Shown here piece after piece: positions 15,519 to 23,488 of a stretch of 52,779 nucleotides of DNA. Both the position numbers and the translations under genes were made by a program. Origin of the DNA: Candidatus Bathyarchaeia archaeon (GTDB taxonomy: Archaea > Thermoproteota > Bathyarchaeia > Bathyarchaeales > Bathycorpusculaceae); NCBI GenBank assembly GCA_050015395.1, contig JBEKBM010000022.1, positions 1-52,779 on the forward strand, in the 5' to 3' direction. The notes below the pieces were generated by a model, which saw only the letters and a list, made by a program, of their open reading frames with translations, made no database searches and was not told the DNA's origin. Each line of letters begins with the position of its first letter. The first letter of the stretch is position 1.

Positions 15519-16316
15519 ATGTTAAGGGAGTTAACTGAAGTGAAACAGTTCCTCATTACACCATCGGCAGGAAAACGCTTAATCGCCAAAGCATTAGCAA
15601 ATCACCCGACAATTTTAAGTGCCCTTAAAAATGGCACGCTTGTAATTGTAGCTGGAACAACAAACGGCTACATCGCGGAAGAAATACTAAAAACCCAAAA
15701 AATTTCAAACGATTTCTCTAGAAAACACTTTTTCCGCGGAATAATTCTACCTCCGAACAAAACCCTAACTGTAGAAGGGCGAATAGCTGACGAAAGCAGA
15801 TTTCCCGGAGACGTAGTGATAACCAAAGGTGCCTGGCAAAAAGGCAAAACAATATCCGACGTGGTTGACTCTCTCAAAGAAGGCGACGTTATCTTAAAAG
15901 GCGCAAATGCTTTGGATTTAGAGCATAAACAAGCAGCTATCCTGATTGGTCACCCGAAAGCTGGAACCATAGGTTTAGCATTGCCCGCCGTTCTGGGGCG
16001 CCGGGTAAAACTGATAATACCGGTAGGCTTGGAAAAGCGCATAAACGGCGATTTGTACGCTTTAGCCGAAAAACTAAATGAGCCCGGTGCAGGTGGCTAT
16101 CGCTTGTTACCTGTTCCAGGACAAGTGTTTACTGAGTTGGATGCGGTGAACTTTTTGACTGGAGCCAATGCTGAATTGTTTTCCGCTGGCGGCGTCTGTG
16201 GCGCAGAAGGGTCATGCTGGCTGGCTGTTACTGGCACAAAAGAGCAAGAGGATGCTGCCGAAAAAATCTTTGCCTCTGTGGCTTATGAACAACCATTTAA
16301 TCTCGATAACCTCTAG
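15519..16316 (+). CDS. Conserved hypothetical alpha/beta protein (possibly CoA-transferase-like fold)
   Basis: 265-aa ORF with [33 protein letters not shown]. Function not recognised. Confidence 0.7.
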
Positions 16317-16567
16317 GACCGCAACTGGAATCTAACGCTTCTTTTAGCCGCGCATGCTTCCTCTTTTTGTTGTTGGATTTTGCCACAAATAGCAGGGTAT
16401 CCTATCGGGTAAAGCTAAAAGTGTGTGCGCTACAGCCTACCCTCGGAGGTCAAAAATATATACGGTTTTCATATACGTTTGTATATACGCTCCAACATGA
16501 ATCAACATCGATGTGCAACGAATGAATACGCGCACTTTGCATGCAGAATACGTTGATTTTGATTGTC

Positions 16568-16661
16568 TCCAGAGGTTAAATCTTGAAAAAACTTGTCTTT
16601 CAATTTCTTGTCCAGGGGCAAGCCTGACTCGTAAATGTAGACTTCTTCGACTTGGGCGCCC
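16568..16661 (-). pseudogene. hemD internal fragment (duplicate A)
   Basis: Near-identical to 22901-22994 of the intact hemD. Confidence 0.9.
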
Positions 16662-16663
16662 GG

Positions 16664-16719
16664 ATGGGAAACCCTTTCCCGTAGGGGTTCGCAGGTTCCA
16701 GCTCCTGCCCGCAGCACCA
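16664..16719 (+). repeat. tRNA-Leu-like 3' half, copy 1 (T-loop mutated)
   Basis: atgggaaaccctttcccgtaggggttcgcaggttccagctcctgcccgcagcacca: long variable arm, T-stem, acceptor strand and CCA. Confidence 0.8.
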
Positions 16720-16763
16720 ATCCATCCTTGCCTTTTGCCTAATAGATGGCTAGAATGTTCCTC

Positions 16764-17097
16764 TTAGCGCTCCCAGTACCGTGCTAACGCTGTTAAGGCT
16801 TCTTCAAACAAGTAGTCTTGGGGCATCACATCAACATTTATGCCCATTTCCCTCAGAGCTTCAGCAGTTGTAGGTCCAATAGCAACAGTTGTAACTTTAC
16901 TATTTATTAGGGCCCGTAGCGTTTCCATGGAGGCTTTTTCGCTAAGCATTTTGAAAATATTCTTGGCGCTTAATCCGCTGCCGAAAACGATTGCGTCAAT
17001 TTTTCCAGAGGTTAAATCTTGAAAAAACTTGTCTTTCAATTTCTTGTCCACGGGCAAGCCTGACTCGTAAACGTAGACTTCTTCGACTTGGGCGCCC
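16764..17097 (-). pseudogene. hemD 3' fragment (duplicate B, ~110 codons)
   Basis: Translation almost identical to the C-terminus of 22661..23488 (K/N swaps at two positions, several synonymous changes). N-terminal part absent. Confidence 0.92.
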
Positions 17098-17099
17098 GA

Positions 17100-17134
17100 A
17101 TGGGAAATCCTTTCTCCTATGGGTTCGCAGGTTC
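17100..17134 (+). repeat. tRNA-Leu-like 3' half, copy 2 (truncated in T-loop)
   Basis: atgggaaatcctttctcctatgggttcgcaggttc, then diverges. Confidence 0.7.
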
Positions 17135-17238
17135 TATCAAAAAAAGTGAGTCTAGCTGCATAGTTTGAGGATTTTTCTAAATAGATAAAAGTTGATACGG
17201 CAAACTGAATTAAACTTGCACAATTCTTAAGTATTTAG

Positions 17239-17278
17239 ATGTATAAAATAATGAGCGGAATGTATAAAAAAATGAGCG
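17239..17278. promoter_or_regulatory. 19-bp direct repeat, putative operator of the MNT-HEPN module
   Basis: atgtataaaataatgagcg and atgtataaaaaaatgagcg; 21-bp period, one mismatch. Confidence 0.5.
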
Positions 17279-17346
17279 ATAATCGCAGCATTATTAATGG
17301 TAAAAAGCGTCTAAAGACCTATGCATATAGCAACATTAACGATGAT

Positions 17347-17889
17347 GTGTCTGAAAAGTTGCATTTTCTGACGCCGAAGGTTTTGGCTGTACTGGAGTTT
17401 TTCTTATTCGACCCGTTGAATGAATATTATGAAAGAGAAGTAGCGGGAAAAACTAATGTGAGCAGGGGTTCTGCGCACAAGATACTAGTAATGCTGGCGA
17501 ATGTAGACTTTTTGACAAGGAAAGAGAGAGGCAGAATGCTAATGTACAGACTTAACATGAAAGAACCCACTGTAAAACAGCTAAAAATCGCTATCAACAC
17601 CTTCGCCCTGAAGAAGTTGGTGGATGACCTAAAAAGTTATTCCAGAAGGGTTATCCTTTTCGGTAGTTGCTCTCAAGGTACAGACACAAAAGAAAGCGAT
17701 GTTGACTTACTGATTGTCGCGATGGAGAAGGAGCCTATAGGAAAATTACTCAGTGACGTCAATAGAAAGAACGAAAGGAAAATAGCTCCCATAGTGGTTG
17801 ACATGAACGAGTTCATTCGCCTAAAAAAGGAAGACAAGCCCTTATATGAAAACATAGAAAGAGGCATAATACTGTGGGAACAAGAGTAA
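17347..17889 (+). CDS. wHTH-MNT nucleotidyltransferase antitoxin
   Basis: N-terminal wHTH (YEREVAGKTNVSRGSAHKIL) and MNT motif LFGSCSQGTDTKESDVDL. GTG at 17347 preferred over the ORF-track start at 17239. Confidence 0.88.
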   Translation: MSEKLHFLTPKVLAVLEFFLFDPLNEYYEREVAGKTNVSRGSAHKILVMLANVDFLTRKERGRMLMYRLNMKEPTVKQLKIAINTFALKKLVDDLKSYSRRVILFGSCSQGTDTKESDVDLLIVAMEKEPIGKLLSDVNRKNERKIAPIVVDMNEFIRLKKEDKPLYENIERGIILWEQE

Positions 17890-18311
17890 GTTCTGAAATC
17901 GCTAGACTGCTGGCTGAAAGAAAACTAATGAAAGCGCAAATAGGCAAAGAAATGATTCTTAAAGAGATTGAAGCTGCTCAAACGGATTTGCGGGATGCAC
18001 AGGATTCTCGTCAAAATAATAAGTTCAAATGGGCAACAATACAGGGTTACTATTCGATGTTTCACAGTGCAAGAGCATTGCTTTTTAGTAAAGGATTCAG
18101 GGAGAAGAGTCATTATGCACTAATGCTTGCAATTAGAATTCTTTTTTCAAATGAACTTGAAAGTTCTTTGGTACGCCAATTCGAAGAGGGCATGGCATTG
18201 AGACAAGAGGCTGATTATGGCCTTAAGTTTTCTGAGAGAGGCGCGTTAGAAACAATCAGCGGAGCAGAAAAACTGCTTTCAAAAGCAAAGGAAATTCTTA
18301 AAATAAAATAA
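17874..18311 (+). CDS. HEPN-domain toxin
   Basis: KWATIQGYYSMFHSARALL...KSHYAL...RQEADY; overlaps the MNT gene. Confidence 0.88.
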   Translation: MGTRVSSEIARLLAERKLMKAQIGKEMILKEIEAAQTDLRDAQDSRQNNKFKWATIQGYYSMFHSARALLFSKGFREKSHYALMLAIRILFSNELESSLVRQFEEGMALRQEADYGLKFSERGALETISGAEKLLSKAKEILKIK

Positions 18312-18384
18312 CTTTGCTTGAACAGTTAACGGTGTGGCTGTTTGTCTCAAAATGCCCAAAAGGCGCACAAAATTGCGTTCCACT

Positions 18385-18481
18385 AAGGACTCAAGATCAA
18401 TCATTTGGCCTGTAATGGGCCTCTATATGGGAAATTCTTTCCCGCAGGAGTTCGCAGGTTCGAATCCTGCCCGCAGCACCA
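18385..18481 (+). pseudogene. tRNA-Leu(CAA) remnant with putative intron, copy 3
   Basis: aagga-ctcaag (anticodon CAA), ~37-nt insert, a-ttctt, variable arm cccgcagga, perfect T-arm gcagg-ttcgaat-cctgc, ccgcagc-acca. No convincing D-arm or 5' acceptor strand. Confidence 0.7.
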
Positions 18482-18638
18482 AATACCTTATTTTGGACCT
18501 ATTTTACAATTTTAAGCTCAAATTGAGCATTATACGTGCGCGTGCGAAGGCATAGTGAGGCGTGATAGAAGGAACGCTTAGGTTTGTAAACTCGCTCTAT
18601 AGACTCCGGTTTAAATCCCACCCTTCTCCATTATGTTG

Positions 18639-19592
18639 TTATTTCTTGGTTAGCTCAAAAGCGAACCTTGTTGTTAAGCGAGCTTCTACTACTCTTGAAT
18701 CGTTGTAGAAATCACAAGTCCAATCTTTGACGTCAAAGTGCAGTTTTGTATTCGTGCGTGCTATAGTCACTAGAGTTTTGTCTATCCCCCTTGCATATCC
18801 TAGTTCAAAATAGACATTTGGTTTTTCGTGAGTAAGATCCGCAACGATTATTTTAGCCGCGCAAATCAGTTCAATTATTTTATCCGTAATTTTATAATCT
18901 CCTTGAACATCTTTGACACGTTCTGCTGTTAGCCCATTTTTCTCCGCAGCTGCTTTTATGCCTTCGAATATTGGGTCCATATCCGGTAAAAAAGACATTA
19001 TCACAAACACCAAATTTGATGGGTAATTAGCTGCATTGGATGTTGGTTTACGAATGCCTTTTGGATCAGACTTCAAAATCTCAGCTACTTCAATTGCTAC
19101 CGCCTTTGCAAGACCATTGACATCAACAAGTTGGTCAGGAGACTTAGCTATCTTGCTTGGATGTTTTTTCAAAGCGATTATTTCTGATAATCCCTTTTCA
19201 TAATCTTTTGAGAGATCAACCCATGCAATATCGTCTATCCATCCAGCATATTTGAAAAAAGGTGAAATTCGGTCTTTGTCCACTTTCTCTATTATAACAG
19301 GTATTATTCGAGTCTTTGCCAAGCTCGGGTTTTTCGAAACTGCCAGACTAATTTCCTTGTTCACCCCGTAGGACTGAAGGCTATTAGGTGAAATGAGTAC
19401 GAGTAAATATTGTGTATTCTCTAAACCGCTAGTAACTTTATCAATAATAGAATCACCGACATGAATATCCCATTCACTGAAAAAAACCCTGAATCCTCTT
19501 TCTGTAAGATCCCGTGCAATTTTACTTGCTATTTGCTTGTCTTTTGAAGAGTAACTAAGAAAAAAATCAAAGACAAATTTTTTAGAGGACAT
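18639..19592 (-). CDS. TIR-domain protein fused to a nucleoside 2-deoxyribosyltransferase-like domain
   Basis: N-terminal FDFFLSYSSKDK...VLISPNSLQSYGVNKEI (TIR_2). C-terminal VFVIMSF...IIVADLTHEKPNVYFELGYARG. Confidence 0.85.
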   Translation of the reverse strand: MSSKKFVFDFFLSYSSKDKQIASKIARDLTERGFRVFFSEWDIHVGDSIIDKVTSGLENTQYLLVLISPNSLQSYGVNKEISLAVSKNPSLAKTRIIPVIIEKVDKDRISPFFKYAGWIDDIAWVDLSKDYEKGLSEIIALKKHPSKIAKSPDQLVDVNGLAKAVAIEVAEILKSDPKGIRKPTSNAANYPSNLVFVIMSFLPDMDPIFEGIKAAAEKNGLTAERVKDVQGDYKITDKIIELICAAKIIVADLTHEKPNVYFELGYARGIDKTLVTIARTNTKLHFDVKDWTCDFYNDSRVVEARLTTRFAFELTKK

Positions 19593-19899
19593 TTTATCGC
19601 CATCCTTAGTAAATTACAGTGTATCCATTTATATTGCTTGCCAGAGAAAGACGTAAACGTCAATCAGGTTAAGATGGGATATAATGGGCTATTTATTGGA
19701 ATTGCCAATTCAATCGCTTTAGCAATATTCACAAATCACACACTTTTCCAATTAGCAAAACAAACGAGCCTTTTCGCGTAATTCTAATAATTTTTTTGAT
19801 ATTGTTCAAACATCAACAGTAAAGCGCTCAGAACTAGTTAACTCTCAATCAATTGTTAAAAAAGGGAATGAGGCATAGATTGTAAACATTAAAAGTTAT

Positions 19900-19953
19900 A
19901 TGGAAAATCCACTCTTTCAGGGTTCGCAAGTTCGAATCCTGCCCGCAACACCA
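19900..19953 (+). repeat. tRNA-Leu-like 3' half, copy 4 (degenerate)
   Basis: atggaaaatcc...gggttcgcaagttcgaatcctgcccgcaacacca. Confidence 0.8.
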
Positions 19954-19979
19954 AAAATTTGCAGGTGCTTATTTTGATA

Positions 19980-20846
19980 TTAGAAAAAATAAGGTTGATG
20001 ATTGCCAATTCTTGCCAGCATTTCTTTTAGCTCATTACCGGGAATCAATCTAACACCAACATTTTCAGCTGCTTTTCTAGCGGCTTGGCTAAAGTTCGCA
20101 TTGGTAACCAGCCAACCCTCAACTTTTTTAGTTGGCGTTGCTCGTTTGACAGCTTCAACATACCCACATAGCTGATAAACAGAACTATTCAGAATGCTAT
20201 TGCCGGCTGTTCTTGCCTTTACTTCTACTACAATAACTTCATTTTTTCTGGAGAGCAGTAAATCAGCCATCAATGAGGTACCAGCTATAATCGGGTTTAG
20301 GATGACATGATATCCTTGTCTATTCATTAGCATTGCAAGTTTCTTTGTTAGATCTGTCTCAGTAACATAGGGCTTGCTCTTTCCGAATTCTTTTGCAAGG
20401 AAGTTCATTGTGTCGTCGCTGGTTGTCTTTACGTCAATTTTATCAAATGAAAAGCTTGGATGCATTTCATTAAAAAGTAGTTTTGAGAAATATATGGCAG
20501 ACTCGACATCTTCTTTTCTTGGAACAAAAGTCCCTGCATGGTAAAGTGAGTTTCGTATATCATGAAAAGCGACGAATTGATTCTTATTATTTTCAATTGA
20601 CTCCAAATCGTTTACGCAAGCATCCAGTAGTTGTGGAAAAAACATTTTCTCTATTTGCCCCCAAGACATGTTCTTTTTGAATCGCATATGTTCTTTCAAC
20701 ATTATCTCGACGGCATTGTCAACATGGACTAAAGCAATAAGAAGATCTTTTTCCGTGCCTTTTTCTAAATGTTCTGAAGAATGCTCGATAAGCTCTTTCG
20801 CATGTCGAGCTATTGGCAAGAGTGGTTGACGAGAGTAAGGTCCCAT
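19980..20846 (-). CDS. HEPN-like domain + Mrr-like PD-(D/E)xK restriction endonuclease fusion
   Basis: N-terminal DNAVEIMLK...RNSLYH (Rx4H). C-terminal ADLLL...VVEVK...VYQLCGY...GWLVTNANFSQAA. Confidence 0.8.
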   Translation of the reverse strand: MGPYSRQPLLPIARHAKELIEHSSEHLEKGTEKDLLIALVHVDNAVEIMLKEHMRFKKNMSWGQIEKMFFPQLLDACVNDLESIENNKNQFVAFHDIRNSLYHAGTFVPRKEDVESAIYFSKLLFNEMHPSFSFDKIDVKTTSDDTMNFLAKEFGKSKPYVTETDLTKKLAMLMNRQGYHVILNPIIAGTSLMADLLLSRKNEVIVVEVKARTAGNSILNSSVYQLCGYVEAVKRATPTKKVEGWLVTNANFSQAARKAAENVGVRLIPGNELKEMLARIGNHQPYFF

Positions 20847-20983
20847 GGTTGCTTATTTAGCCCTCTTGCTTTAAAAGATTTATGAGCTTATGTTATTGCT
20901 AGCCACTTTCTACGAAATATCTTCCGTCTGCCTGTTAAACCATTGTTATGGTTAATAAGTTCAAAAATATCGTATTTAGACAC

Positions 20984-21760
20984 CTATTTTTTATAACTGT
21001 CAGCAAGAGCCTGTTGCATTTCATCGATTTCATTTTCTATTTTTTTAATTGCTTCCTTTTCGTTACGGCTTGTCAGAAGGTGCCACGCGATGGATATTGT
21101 TGGCTCAGGCAGACCTCCCTGATACCTTTTAAGTAAATCTTTGGGAACCCATTGTTGTGCACTTTCTGCTGCTTCTATCATAAACGATTCTGCAGCAAAA
21201 CTAGCAATGGGTACAGTTCCTTTCTTAACATGTTTGTACTTTTGGTATACTTCCATGACTTTAATGAGCTGCTCTTTCAGCCTAACTTGTAACATAGTCT
21301 CCATGTACTTAGATGCGCTCTCATTATCCATTTGAGAAGTAGATGCAAGAACTTCTGCGAGATTATAGGTAAAGAGTTTGAGAGCAGTATCCATATAACC
21401 CCAAGCTTGCTCTTCTTCTTCAGAGAACTGGATTCCAGGTGTTGCCTTCAGAAGATCATACATTTCTTTTTCAGTGAGATTGCCGTAAAAGGGTTTCTGA
21501 GATACAAGGCGATAGTAAGTTTTGGATAGCTTGGAATGGGTACTAGACTCTTCATTTTTAACGACGACGCCTTCGTCGGTAAATTGCTTAAGGTACTTTG
21601 CCAACGTCGCTGTGCTTATCCCAGTTGGTCTAGATGCTTTTTTGAGAGCACCCCAACTTTGCGGTTCCTCTGAAAGTATGTTATAAACGGATTTCTTAGA
21701 TTCTTCTTCTTTTTGAATTGATGTTCGCGTGTCTCCTATTCGCCCAGGCACTCTAATCAC
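20984..21760 (-). CDS. Winged-helix domain protein with helical C-terminus
   Basis: ILSEEPQSWGALKK...ISTATLAKYLKQFTDEGVVVK...YYRL. Confidence 0.7.
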   Translation of the reverse strand: MIRVPGRIGDTRTSIQKEEESKKSVYNILSEEPQSWGALKKASRPTGISTATLAKYLKQFTDEGVVVKNEESSTHSKLSKTYYRLVSQKPFYGNLTEKEMYDLLKATPGIQFSEEEEQAWGYMDTALKLFTYNLAEVLASTSQMDNESASKYMETMLQVRLKEQLIKVMEVYQKYKHVKKGTVPIASFAAESFMIEAAESAQQWVPKDLLKRYQGGLPEPTISIAWHLLTSRNEKEAIKKIENEIDEMQQALADSYKK

Positions 21761-21791
21761 TAAACTAGTTTAAAGCACTAAACTAATTTAA
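21758..21791. promoter_or_regulatory. Tandem palindromic operator-like sites at the wHTH gene start
   Basis: cactaaactagtttaa and cactaaactaatttaa, 18-bp period; core taaactagttta is a perfect palindrome. Confidence 0.55.
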
Positions 21792-21929
21792 GTCTTTAGC
21801 ATTAACTAACAATATGGTTAACCAAAAGAAAGAATCAGAGCGCTGTCGAACCAATCGCACGAGGCAAAACATTGCAACGTCGAAATATGACAGCCTTCTG
21901 TTTCTTTTGAATGGAAGCCAATTTAGGCA

Positions 21930-22481
21930 TTGGAGAAATCGTCTATGGATACTAGAATAGAAGCACTGATAAAAGAAGCGGACAGAAAAAGTTTCGCAGG
22001 TCGGCTAAATAGATTGAGGTTCCTCTTGGACAATTTAGGAGAAAATTACCCTCCTTTTCCTAGAATTGTCTTTGAGTATTTTGAAGAGACGAAACTTTGC
22101 TTTTACGAGGGAGCGTTTGTAGCGACCATTATTATGGCCTCAGCAACGTTTGAAGAGCTCTTTCGACAAATCTACAGAGATGCAAATGAGATGGAAAAGG
22201 CAGAAACCAAAGGCATGGCAAATCTCGTAGAATATGCAGTCGAAGATGGTTTAATCTCATTGGAAGAAGCAGAAAAACTCACCGAACTAAGAAAATTACG
22301 AAACAAGTTTACCCATATCAACATTGGTTTTGGCGAGGGTAGTTTCAAGAACAAACAAACGTTCTTAGACCACATGCTTTTGTGGGGTGACCCTAGAAAA
22401 GAGTCTCTACTAGTTGAGGACCTTAGTAGAAGTGCCATAATAATATTGAAACTTTTGCCAGAACTATGCAGTCGTTTCTGA
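21930..22481 (+). CDS. Stand-alone HEPN-like (DUF4145-type) protein
   Basis: ETKLCFYEGAFVATIIMASATFE...LRKLRNKFTH (Rx4H). Confidence 0.7.
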   Translation: MEKSSMDTRIEALIKEADRKSFAGRLNRLRFLLDNLGENYPPFPRIVFEYFEETKLCFYEGAFVATIIMASATFEELFRQIYRDANEMEKAETKGMANLVEYAVEDGLISLEEAEKLTELRKLRNKFTHINIGFGEGSFKNKQTFLDHMLLWGDPRKESLLVEDLSRSAIIILKLLPELCSRF

Positions 22482-22565
22482 GGCCTTGACAAACATGACC
22501 TAAAAATTACGTTTGACCTGCCAATGCAGGCTTGAGGGTCGATACTTTGACTTGATCGCCCCCGA

Positions 22566-22616
22566 ATGAGAAACCCTTTCCCGGGTTCGCAGGTTCGAAT
22601 CCTGCCCGCAGCACCA
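22566..22616 (+). repeat. tRNA-Leu-like 3' half, copy 5
   Basis: atgagaaaccctttcccgggttcgcaggttcgaatcctgcccgcagcacca; perfect T-arm and CCA, shortened variable arm. Confidence 0.82.
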
Positions 22617-22660
22617 ATCCATTCTTGCCTTTTGCCTGATAGATGGCTAGAATGTTCCTC

Positions 22661-23488
22661 TTAGCGCTCCCAGTACCGTGCTAACGCTGTTAAGGCTTCT
22701 TCAAACAAGTAGTCCTGCGGCATCACGTCAACTTTTATGCCCATTTCTCTTAAGGCTTCAGCAGTTGTAGGTCCAATAGCAACAGTTGTAACTTTACTAT
22801 TTATTAGGGCCCGTAGCGTTTCCATGGAGGCTTTTTCGCTAAGCATTTTGAAAATATTCTTGGCGCTTAATCCGCTGCCGAAAACGATTGCGTCAATTTT
22901 TCCAGAGGTTAAATCTTGAAAAAAATTGTCTTTCAATTTCTTGTCCACGGGCAAGCCTGACTCGTAAACGTAGACTTCTTCGACTTGGCCGCCCAATTCC
23001 TTGAGCTTCTCAGTTAAAGTCGGTGTTGCTCCAGTAGTTCTTGGAATGCGTATAGTTTTGCCTGAAATTTCTTTGTCTTGCAAGCACTCGATTAATCCTT
23101 CAGAACTGTACTTCAACGGGACTAAGCTCACATGCACCTGGTATTCTTCTTCCAGCGCCTGAGAAGTTCTCGGGCCAACAGCAATAACAAACGTCTTAGC
23201 CAATCCTTCCTTCAATTGGCTGGATTGCTTCAGGGTTTCAGCAGCGCTGAAAAGGTATTTCACGCCGTTAGTGCTCATAAAAATAACATAGTCAACTTGC
23301 CCCTTTAGCAGTTCACCGACAAATTTTTTCACTGGCGAAAAATTGGTTAAACCTTTGATTTCTATGGCAGGTATAAAGTAGGGTGTTCCGCCTTTTTCCT
23401 CGATTAGTTTGCCCGCTTCTTCCGCCTGACCGGTGGGGCGTGTTATGGCAACTGTTTTTCCTTTCAGGCTAAAGGCTTTTTGAACCAT
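22661..23488 (-). CDS. hemD: Uroporphyrinogen-III synthase
   Basis: VAITRP, FMSTNGV, AVGPRT, VYES, AIGPTTA. Confidence 0.95.
   Translation of the reverse strand: MVQKAFSLKGKTVAITRPTGQAEEAGKLIEEKGGTPYFIPAIEIKGLTNFSPVKKFVGELLKGQVDYVIFMSTNGVKYLFSAAETLKQSSQLKEGLAKTFVIAVGPRTSQALEEEYQVHVSLVPLKYSSEGLIECLQDKEISGKTIRIPRTTGATPTLTEKLKELGGQVEEVYVYESGLPVDKKLKDNFFQDLTSGKIDAIVFGSGLSAKNIFKMLSEKASMETLRALINSKVTTVAIGPTTAEALREMGIKVDVMPQDYLFEEALTALARYWER

Follow-up and report, generated by a model that had tools for sequence, protein, structure and literature searches.

A row of small defence cassettes between fragments of a tRNA-Leu(CAA) gene, away from that gene, in a bathyarchaeal genome

How does a row of defence genes come to lie between fragments of a tRNA gene, at a place that holds neither an intact tRNA gene nor an integrase? 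The question is raised by a stretch of 52,779 nucleotides from a Candidatus Bathyarchaeia archaeon (GenBank assembly GCA_050015395.1, contig JBEKBM010000022.1), called the window in what follows, which is the entire contig C22 of a genome of 2.59 Mb in 42 contigs, 98.9% complete. Genomes are labelled here with G-numbers (G000 being that of the window), contigs with C-numbers and fetched loci with L-numbers. Between a conserved gene, X265, and hemD, the window carries five copies of the 3′ part of a tRNA-Leu gene, three of the intervals between them being occupied by defence modules. A reading made from the sequence alone had proposed that these cassettes were captured one after another at a tRNA-derived site by a recombinase acting in trans, giving an integron-like array. 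The reading that we prefer, at a probability of about one half, is that of an ectopic accretion array of integrase-less mini-elements whose attachment (att) site is the 3′ part of tRNA-Leu(CAA), and mobilisation in trans by an integrase of the type found in a relative, G084, is the route that we favour.

Five fragments of an intron-bearing tRNA gene

Inspection of positions 16400-22900, a repeat finder and alignment to the intact gene gave five copies of one tRNA-derived sequence between X265 and hemD, all on the + strand, as the sequence-only reading had stated. Copy 1 (16645-16719) is made of a hybrid joint between hemD and the tRNA intron, the end of the intron, exon 2 with a mutated T-loop and the CCA end; it is 89% identical to positions 48-121 of the parent gene, and its 'atgggaaa' begins at 16664. 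Copy 2 (17081-17134; 85% to parent 48-101) has the hybrid joint and exon 2, which breaks off within the T-loop. Copy 3 (18385-18481; 81% to its own parent) is the most complete, with a trace of a second intron, the anticodon stem-loop CTCAAGA, a 38-nt intron, exon 2 and CCA, and it reaches back to about 18359 (18359-18481) by similarity to the two-intron alleles of relatives. Copy 4 (19900-19953; 84% to parent 67-121) is exon 2 with a weaker likeness back to about 19860, and copy 5 (22539-22616; 84% to parent 42-121), which adjoins hemD, has part of the intron, exon 2 lacking 4 nt of the variable arm, and CCA. The five copies are thus 81-89% identical to the parent over 54-97 nt, and the last 33-34 nt of copies 3, 4 and 5 are 94-100% identical to it. 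Chance is excluded as the origin of the repeats because the terminal 18-mer, at no more than 3 mismatches, has 4 matches in the window where 0.02 are expected (0 of 100 shuffles reach 4), and the T-arm 19-mer has 3 where 0.00 are expected. The repeats had been described as a tRNA-Leu 3′ half; that identity stands, and their start has to be moved further 5′, into the intron, and for copy 3 into the anticodon stem.

No tRNA was found in the window by ARAGORN or by Rfam at the gathering score, and neither PF00589 nor tblastn placed an integrase on C22, both absences agreeing with the earlier description. With introns allowed, ARAGORN made one call in the window, which needs a 1.1-kb 'intron' and was rejected as spurious. 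The inserted DNA is flanked here by direct repeats that closely match the 3′ end portion of a tRNA gene, which supports the proposal that these repeats are of the kind left by tyrosine integrases that target tRNA genes. The intact target tRNA that would form one end (attL) of such an insertion is absent: the parent gene is on C30, and the site is free of tRNA in relatives.

The parent, a tRNA-Leu gene that the sequence-only reading had supposed to exist elsewhere in the genome, was found by ARAGORN (introns allowed) as a 121-nt gene at C30:6980-7100, and by BLAST it is the sole full-length relative of the repeats in G000. ARAGORN labelled it Ser(CGA) with a 33-nt intron, a label that we rejected after removal of the intron and comparison of discriminators. 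We read the gene as Leu(CAA) because its anticodon loop reads CTCAAGA, because removal of the 33 nt between G37 and A38 leaves an 88-nt sequence that ARAGORN calls Leu(CAA), because its discriminator is A73, as in 3/3 intron-less Leu tRNAs of G000 (3/3 Ser tRNAs have G73), and because CUCA (32-35) could pair with the UGGG before the 3′ splice site, as in a bulge-helix-bulge. With the intron at 37/38, the 'ATGGGAAA' of the repeats consists of the intron's end and nucleotide 38, and the repeats as a whole are the end of the intron plus exon 2.

The tRNA-Leu(CAA) genes of the genus have one intron (33 nt at 37/38, as at C30:6980-7100) or two (L070, 3660-3810), G097, G088 and others carrying a further ~27 nt ahead of the anticodon stem, and intron alleles differ between the fragment copies. 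The 38-nt intron of copy 3 differs from the 33-nt intron of the parent, and relatives such as G097 have the second intron in their tRNA genes. Copy 3 is 88-92% identical to the tRNA genes of G088, G016, G127 and G049, against 81% to its own parent; since it is closer to the alleles of other species, its sequence points to import from another species.

The insertion site between X265 and hemD

The left anchor of the site is X265 (15519-16316, + strand; 265 aa), a conserved gene present in 22 of 41 relatives and without a match in Pfam or NCBIfam; the right anchor is an intact hemD (22661-23488, - strand; HEM4, E=1.8e-51). The two are convergent neighbours separated by 50-620 nt in G024, G014, G015, G007, G020, G016 and G047, and by 1.2-1.7 kb in G003 and G008. 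All of these have their tRNA-Leu(CAA) elsewhere, apart from G024, which gave only a weak match to another tRNA, and in G003, G020 and G008 the gap holds a small conserved gene and no trace of a tRNA. The space between X265 and hemD is a secondary (non-tRNA) insertion site, because the two genes are direct neighbours in relatives whose tRNA lies elsewhere. It is near-empty in most congeners; in G016, whose hemD is 95% identical, it is almost empty, with a 26-nt remnant of the tRNA 3′ end directly beside hemD, in the same place as copy 5.

Two other relatives carry arrays at this site. In G019 a piece of hemD, the hybrid joint and a fragment are followed by VapB and PIN genes, a fragment, an antitoxin gene with ParE, a fragment, and small open reading frames (ORFs) that run into hemD; in G130 the order is a piece of hemD, the hybrid joint, a fragment, an antitoxin gene with ParE, and hemD. 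The flanks and the founding joint are common to G000, G019 and G130, and the cassette content is entirely different. Variable cassette content beside hemD, which the sequence-only reading had suggested looking for, is therefore what G019, G130 and G016 display, and presence and absence are bounded by the repeats: G000, G019 and G130 differ, G016 is near-empty, and at another locus G098 has a ParE unit that G000 lacks. The relatives support modular turnover.

In the window, the modules proposed to lie between the copies are there for three of the intervals: a wHTH-MNT and HEPN pair (cassette 1), a TIR-domain protein (cassette 2) and an Mrr protein with two others (cassette 3; wHTH stands for winged helix-turn-helix). 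The interval between copies 1 and 2 is a pseudogene piece of hemD. Positions 16720-17080 repeat the final ~370 nt of hemD together with a 45-nt spacer and hold no defence module; the whole pseudogene feature (16720-17097, - strand) includes an ORF at 16764-17057 (97 aa; HEM4, E=1.2e-14), and 300 nt of it are 97% identical to 22600-22899. To its left lies an internal piece of hemD (16568-16661, - strand; 95-97% identical to the hemD of G016 and G019), the leftmost, truncated unit of a tandem duplication. Altogether, 16568-17134 amount to 1.3 tandem units of a 436-nt segment made of fragment, spacer and hemD 3′ end, 95-97% identical to 22545-22994. In each duplicated unit hemD-internal sequence joins the tRNA intron at 'CTTCGACTTGG/GCGCCC' (joints at 16645-16662 and 17081-17098), and the duplication bearing this joint is common to G000, G019 and G130. 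The hemD site at 22978-22995 matches the intron 18-mer at 15/18 positions in G000 and 16/18 in G016, where ~0.05 such matches would be expected by chance in the window, and from this likeness unequal exchange at the patch common to intron and hemD is the best account of how hemD and fragment came to be tandemly duplicated.

Further observations concern the same neighbourhood. The hem operon beside the array is variably present, hemD being found in 13 of 24 other genomes sampled from the genus. The hemD of G019 (L028, 5662-6561) has lost its stop codon and runs for 24 more residues into a remnant of a VapB-like antitoxin (tail ...MFGSNRKLNSFSKKDEAEFNKL), the last cassette having been fused to hemD by a deletion, and in G094:C1 (L072) hemD is reduced to a 165-nt 3′ remnant. 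In G077:C8 (L073) X265 is joined to DNA homologous to the window at about 28015. In G097 (L070, C6:147500-154000; L071, C4:36500-42500) hemD has, at a distance of 1.05 kb, the intact tRNA-Leu(CAA) together with its pepF-side flank, and the DNA next to X265 is homologous to G000 C30:8727-12147; compared with G000, the two fragment-bearing loci have been reciprocally exchanged, by inversion, translocation or misassembly at the repeat.

Recurrent units, candidate recombinases and rival explanations

The tRNA 3′ part was matched in 115 of the 120 genomes of the genus. In at least 19 of the 120 an intact tRNA is followed by a same-strand fragment 0.3-2.7 kb downstream, a layout that was checked on 21 fetched loci; the number is a lower bound, with 76 matches unlisted and remnants of 15-18 nt escaping the search. 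The distance from tRNA to fragment is 12.7-15 kb in G084 and G122. The units consist of one to three toxin-antitoxin (TA) or defence genes and a 35-100-nt fragment, in rows downstream of the intact tRNA and at a few non-tRNA sites. Those that recur are PIN with a 66-aa antitoxin, a 76-aa antitoxin with an 85-aa ParE, a 69-79-aa antitoxin with an 84-aa ParE, VapB with PIN, an AAA ATPase, and an Mrr protein related to that of the window. In 6 genomes the PIN unit could be aligned over the whole interval that separates the left CCA from the next fragment, the unit standing first, second or third in the array. Alignment of the ParE unit covered 11 loci (the native tRNA in 7 cases, the hemD site in 1, other sites in 3), with the fragment ~10 nt after the stop codon of the toxin. 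Units are also shared between the two kinds of site: the VapBC unit at the hemD site of G019, together with both of its fragments, is 94% identical over 1002 nt to a unit at the native locus of G077; and the native tRNA locus of G086 has, in one of its cassettes, a homologue (~67% nucleotide identity) of the Mrr protein of the window (20846-19980). A homologue of the MNT gene (85% at the nucleotide level) lies just after a Leu(CAA) fragment at yet another site, in G087. The native locus of G000 itself, on C30, consists of the tRNA, a ParE unit, a PIN unit, a decayed fragment and a copy of the MNT-HEPN pair (C30:8530-8682) that is 89-91% identical to that of the window and has a 970-nt internal deletion. 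Finally, G098 carries a ~605-nt ParE unit and its fragment where the homologous intergenic site of G000 has neither; on the att side the limit of this insertion could not be fixed to the base, the intergenic DNA being too diverged.

Which enzyme could move such units? PF00589 has six matches in G000, all on contigs other than C22, and tblastn with the G000 integrases found none on C22 or C30. The same search gave a seventh integrase-like gene (C11:65990-67225), missed by the PF00589 scan, which adjoins a tRNA-Ala(CGC) 3′ fragment 5.3 kb downstream of that tRNA. There is no serine recombinase in G000, and a single IS200-type transposase, on C9. None of the window cassettes has an integrase beside its att copy, and Pfam found neither a tyrosine recombinase nor a primase/helicase replication module in the six cassette proteins. 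The sequence-only reading had asked for an unlinked integrase, and the genome does have several off the contig, none of them beside a Leu(CAA) fragment. The recombinase that it supposed to act in trans was not identified in G000; a cognate family was found only beside this tRNA in G084, where the ORF of a 505-aa tyrosine integrase is convergent with, and overlaps, an intact tRNA-Leu(CAA) in an element of ~14 kb, and beside a Leu(CAA) fragment in G133, where the C-terminus of an integrase of this type lies. The G084 integrase is 64% identical over 461 residues to that on C4 of G000 and 50% to that on C34. An 18-nt att remnant (ATCCTGCCCGTAGCACCA) closes its element; beyond it stands a ParE unit that is separate and has a fragment to itself, and G122 is laid out in the same way with a PIN unit. 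The ends of these two elements make the terminal ~18 nt of the fragment the likely region of exchange. When IMG/VR was scanned for exact copies of att sequence, a 25-mer gave no match and a 19-mer a single contig, unrelated and bacteriophage-like, which was discarded as a 20-nt chance match.

On the preferred reading, of integrase-less mini-elements accreted at an ectopic site, a tRNA fragment would first have landed next to hemD, the 436-nt unit of fragment, spacer and hemD 3′ end would then have been tandemly duplicated through the 18-nt intron/hemD patch, and cassettes would afterwards have been added or exchanged at the fragment copies. The recombinase would probably be of the family of 470-505-aa tyrosine integrases found in G084, acting in trans on the terminal ~18 nt, and the cassettes would persist through TA addiction and the benefit of defence. 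Since several copies are now decayed, a large part of the array is probably fossil. A wider claim, which we put forward tentatively, is that members of the genus run an integron-like exchange of cassettes built from tRNA parts. Replicon-less circles of 0.3-2.7 kb, having as their only cis element a 35-100-nt fragment attached to a TA or defence module, would be excised and inserted in trans, at the last ~18 nt, by integrases of co-resident elements or viruses of the G084 type. The targets could be the tRNA gene itself, any fragment copy already in place and, now and then, unrelated sites, so that insertion would seed new arrays such as that beside hemD, and the scheme might extend to other tRNAs, the Thr, Arg, Ser and Pro genes of G000 carrying mini-cassettes as well.

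Trans-mobilisation, decay of larger elements and homologous exchange are not mutually exclusive. Decay, in which the cassettes would be cargo that survived near the attR of larger integrase-bearing elements or proviruses and was never mobile alone, is in our view rather unlikely. In its favour, this att is also that of larger elements (one of ~14 kb, with an integrase, in G084 and one of 12.7 kb in G122), terminase remnants adjoin fragments in G100, the spacer after the left CCA is variable, and deletions are visible, as are truncated or lost fragments, the 970-nt deletion in the C30 copy of MNT-HEPN being one case; moreover, integrase-less integrated archaeal elements are presumed, in part of a review (PMC8371274), to have lost their integrase after integration. 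Independent deletions, however, should not yield the same ~0.6-0.7-kb fragment-bounded units in many genomes and at different positions, and the ~605-nt unit present in G098 and absent in G000 is at a non-tRNA site. In G084 and G122, in addition, the small cassette next to the big element is a separate unit, because it has its own short att remnant on its left.

The case for homologous exchange alone, with fragments serving as portable homology for host recombination or for a homology-dependent activity of an integrase, and without site-specific recombination, is that the hemD joint lies in a patch of 15-16/18-nt similarity, that the 436-nt unit is tandemly duplicated, that 33-35 identical nt are common to the fragments, and that in G097 the native tRNA locus and the hemD locus are reciprocally exchanged relative to G000; an archaeal integrase with outcomes like those of homologous recombination, and with inversions, is described in a section of PMC8371274. 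This account leaves unexplained how a fragment copy was first created at the end of each cassette and how insertions arose at sites without tRNA-like sequence (G098), and the fragment lengths fall into discrete classes ending at the CCA end of the tRNA, so that we regard it as improbable.

That an assembler chained strains or loci into a false array at the repeats can be dismissed as very improbable: the 33 nt identical in copy 3, copy 5 and the parent do make a k=31 graph ambiguous there, and loose ends from the C30 gene map onto the copies, but the hemD piece, hybrid joint and fragment occur in the independent genomes G019 and G130, and all four metagenome runs examined as Logan contigs (2017, 2018, 2020 and 2025) cover all 30 bins and reproduce the array, with contigs 17251-18479 and 18453-22612 (across copy 4) showing 0 differences and similar depth in 4/4. 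Of the words of the stretch, 0.97-0.99 occur in 24 public runs under 22 study codes, all of them peat or wetland metagenomes, which are not independent because all are flagged as possible sources. The artefact that would have undone the sequence-only reading is in this way set aside.

Several results count against an array of mini-elements moved in trans. G000 has paralogues of the G084 integrase and no integrase beside a Leu(CAA) fragment; the closest paralogue, on C4, adjoins a fragment of tRNA-Asn, and the G084-type family itself scores 23.7 bits with PF00589 where the cut-off is 27.1. No circular junction, including the circularised single cassettes that the sequence-only reading had called for, and no form with a cassette lost or gained, was seen in the contigs of the four runs, which drop rare variants. 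(A joint 17280->18251, with 30-nt sides and 29 letters between, was considered as an excision product and rejected, being the deleted MNT-HEPN paralogue on C30.) In the ParE unit the spacer after the left CCA varies, and left boundaries are therefore not sharply conserved. Fragments decay, copy 2 being truncated and right-hand fragments having been lost at C30, G130 and G019. The TIR protein of cassette 2 has no homologue in the 119 other genomes of the genus at E<=1e-20, nor in the genome-contig collection. Lastly, the founding joint beside hemD looks homology-driven and not site-specific, because of the 15-16/18-nt match between tRNA intron and hemD.

How does the array compare with known systems? 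Chromosomal integrons hold, in a row, small exchangeable cassettes that each end in a recombination site, with TA and defence genes frequent and no recombinase inside the cassettes. The array resembles them in all of these traits. The name 'integron-like' given to it nevertheless fails on each of the three points tested. There is no adjacent intI (nor attI or Pc); the repeats are not attC sites, which are imperfect inverted repeats recombined as folded single strands, and align base for base to the intron end and exon 2 of tRNA-Leu(CAA) in direct orientation; and the genes lie on both strands, unlike the mostly promoterless cassettes of integrons, which share one orientation and a common promoter. 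The cis-mobilizable elements (CIMEs) of streptococcal integrative and conjugative elements, known from accretion and mobilisation, are att-flanked, lack recombination genes and are thought to be moved by an integrase-bearing tandem neighbour. The units here are likewise att-flanked and without recombination genes, and differ from CIMEs in that those are bacterial, linked to conjugation and usually several kb long, and that no helper is in the same genome here. Among archaea, comparable systems are tandem or accreted tRNA-integrating elements and their integrase-less derivatives, a subject reportedly treated by She et al. (2001) as 'gene capture'.

For such archaeal elements, passages of two papers (PMC8371274, PMC6563490) describe arrays formed by re-use of att, integrated elements without an integrase, carriage of an intron by attP and inversions linked to att. 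The array shares with the elements treated in those passages the direct repeats of a tRNA 3′ part, the re-use of att, the lack of an integrase, tRNA intron sequence in the att and, in the genus, rearrangements between att copies. With 0.3-2.7 kb and one to three genes, its units are much smaller; their cargo is confined to TA or defence genes, and they recur in many genomes and form an array also away from any tRNA gene. Tycheposon islands of Prochlorococcus, in the part of a preprint that treats them (bioRxiv 10.1101/2020.12.28.424599), arise by integration at tRNA genes, newcomers displacing older elements outward with partial tRNA copies between neighbours, and hold degenerate elements and scattered partial tRNAs. 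The array here resembles them in these respects. Tycheposons have their own tyrosine recombinase and a replication module (primase/helicase), both absent from the cassettes here, and carry nutrient genes, whereas the cargo here is TA and defence genes, the host is an archaeon and the att includes an intron. In the full text of open papers and preprints we did not find the combination described: recurrent 0.3-2.7-kb TA/defence units across a genus, a tRNA fragment as the only cis element, and arrays away from tRNA genes.

If the units are mobilised in trans, archaea would be able to shuffle genes for immunity and addiction as cassettes, in a way comparable to integrons and tycheposon islands, and the array would need no dedicated recombinase of its own. 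tRNA fragments could then seed hot spots away from tRNA genes, tRNA introns would travel with cassettes, and fragment copies would drive chromosome rearrangement, as in G097. Even if the units are products of decay, the locus records cleanly, over many genomes, how tRNA-targeting elements give rise to defence islands in a peat archaeon that is abundant and uncultured.

Cassette proteins and other loci

The genes of the three cassettes lie on the strands + +, then -, then - - +, with their own upstream regions. The domains named by the sequence-only reading were recovered by Pfam for MNT, the HEPN protein at 17874-18311, TIR_2 and Mrr_cat. Cassette 1 consists of a wHTH-MNT nucleotidyltransferase (17239-17889, + strand; NTP_transf_2 E=7e-10, PADLOC PDC-M05A E=3e-22) and a HEPN protein (17874-18311, + strand; PF05168 HEPN E=4e-13, PADLOC PDC-M05B); the two genes overlap by 16 nt and are predicted from their sequence to be a HEPN-MNT toxin-antitoxin pair. 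Cassette 2 has one gene, on the - strand (18639-19592), for a TIR-domain protein (TIR_2 E=1e-28, 100.6 bits, cut-off 28), whose C-terminal part resembles a nucleoside 2-deoxyribosyltransferase (Nuc_deoxyrib_tr E=3e-5, below the family cut-off). By its domain it is predicted to be a defence effector, with no partner gene in the cassette.

Cassette 3 had been described as HEPN-Mrr, wHTH and HEPN, of which Mrr stands. Its 288-aa protein (19980-20846, - strand) has an RNSLYH motif in the N-terminal part and Mrr_cat (E=1.4e-9) at residues 164-277. The 258-aa protein (20984-21760, - strand) may have an N-terminal winged helix; the match is weak (MCM_C wHTH, E=0.009), and its Atlas neighbours, wHTH regulators with scores <=0.90, are a lead in the same direction. 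The 183-aa protein (21930-22481, + strand) carries an RNKFTH (Rx4H) motif and has no match in Pfam, PADLOC or NCBIfam; one Atlas neighbour cluster, with DUF4145 in 15% of its members, is again a lead. HEPN in this protein and in the N-terminus of the Mrr protein is a putative assignment drawn from the two Rx4H motifs, RNKFTH and RNSLYH, and neither region matched HEPN in Pfam, NCBIfam or PADLOC.

Fragment-bounded genes were also seen at other tRNA genes of G000 (L064-L068: C3:66759-68185; C25:41942-47692; C2:137117-138860; C26:36516-39402; C39:12138-15457). Thr(GGT) is followed by a HicB-like gene, a fragment, PIN and a fragment; Arg(CCT) by a 332-aa ORF, a fragment, HicB and HicA, a fragment and, further on, another fragment; Ser(GCT) by an AAA ATPase, a 159-aa protein and a fragment; and Pro(CGG) by an 840-aa UvrD-type helicase and a fragment. 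Two Arg(CCT) fragments have a 994-aa enzyme of the Eco57I/MmeI type between them. In G100 (L055, L056; C13, C17) Leu(CAA) fragments adjoin complete or broken genes for a large terminase, which suggests that head-tailed proviruses also use the tRNA-Leu(CAA) att. At the native locus of G016 (L034, 3194-3562) the gene of an IS200-type Y1 transposase lies inside the ParE cassette between tRNA and fragment. Within the window, a stretch of ~36 nt between X265 and the array (16453-16488, 'atatacggttttcatatacgtttgtatatacgctcc') was found on several other contigs in 4/4 metagenome runs, with flanks that diverge on both sides, which suggests a short repeat common in the community.

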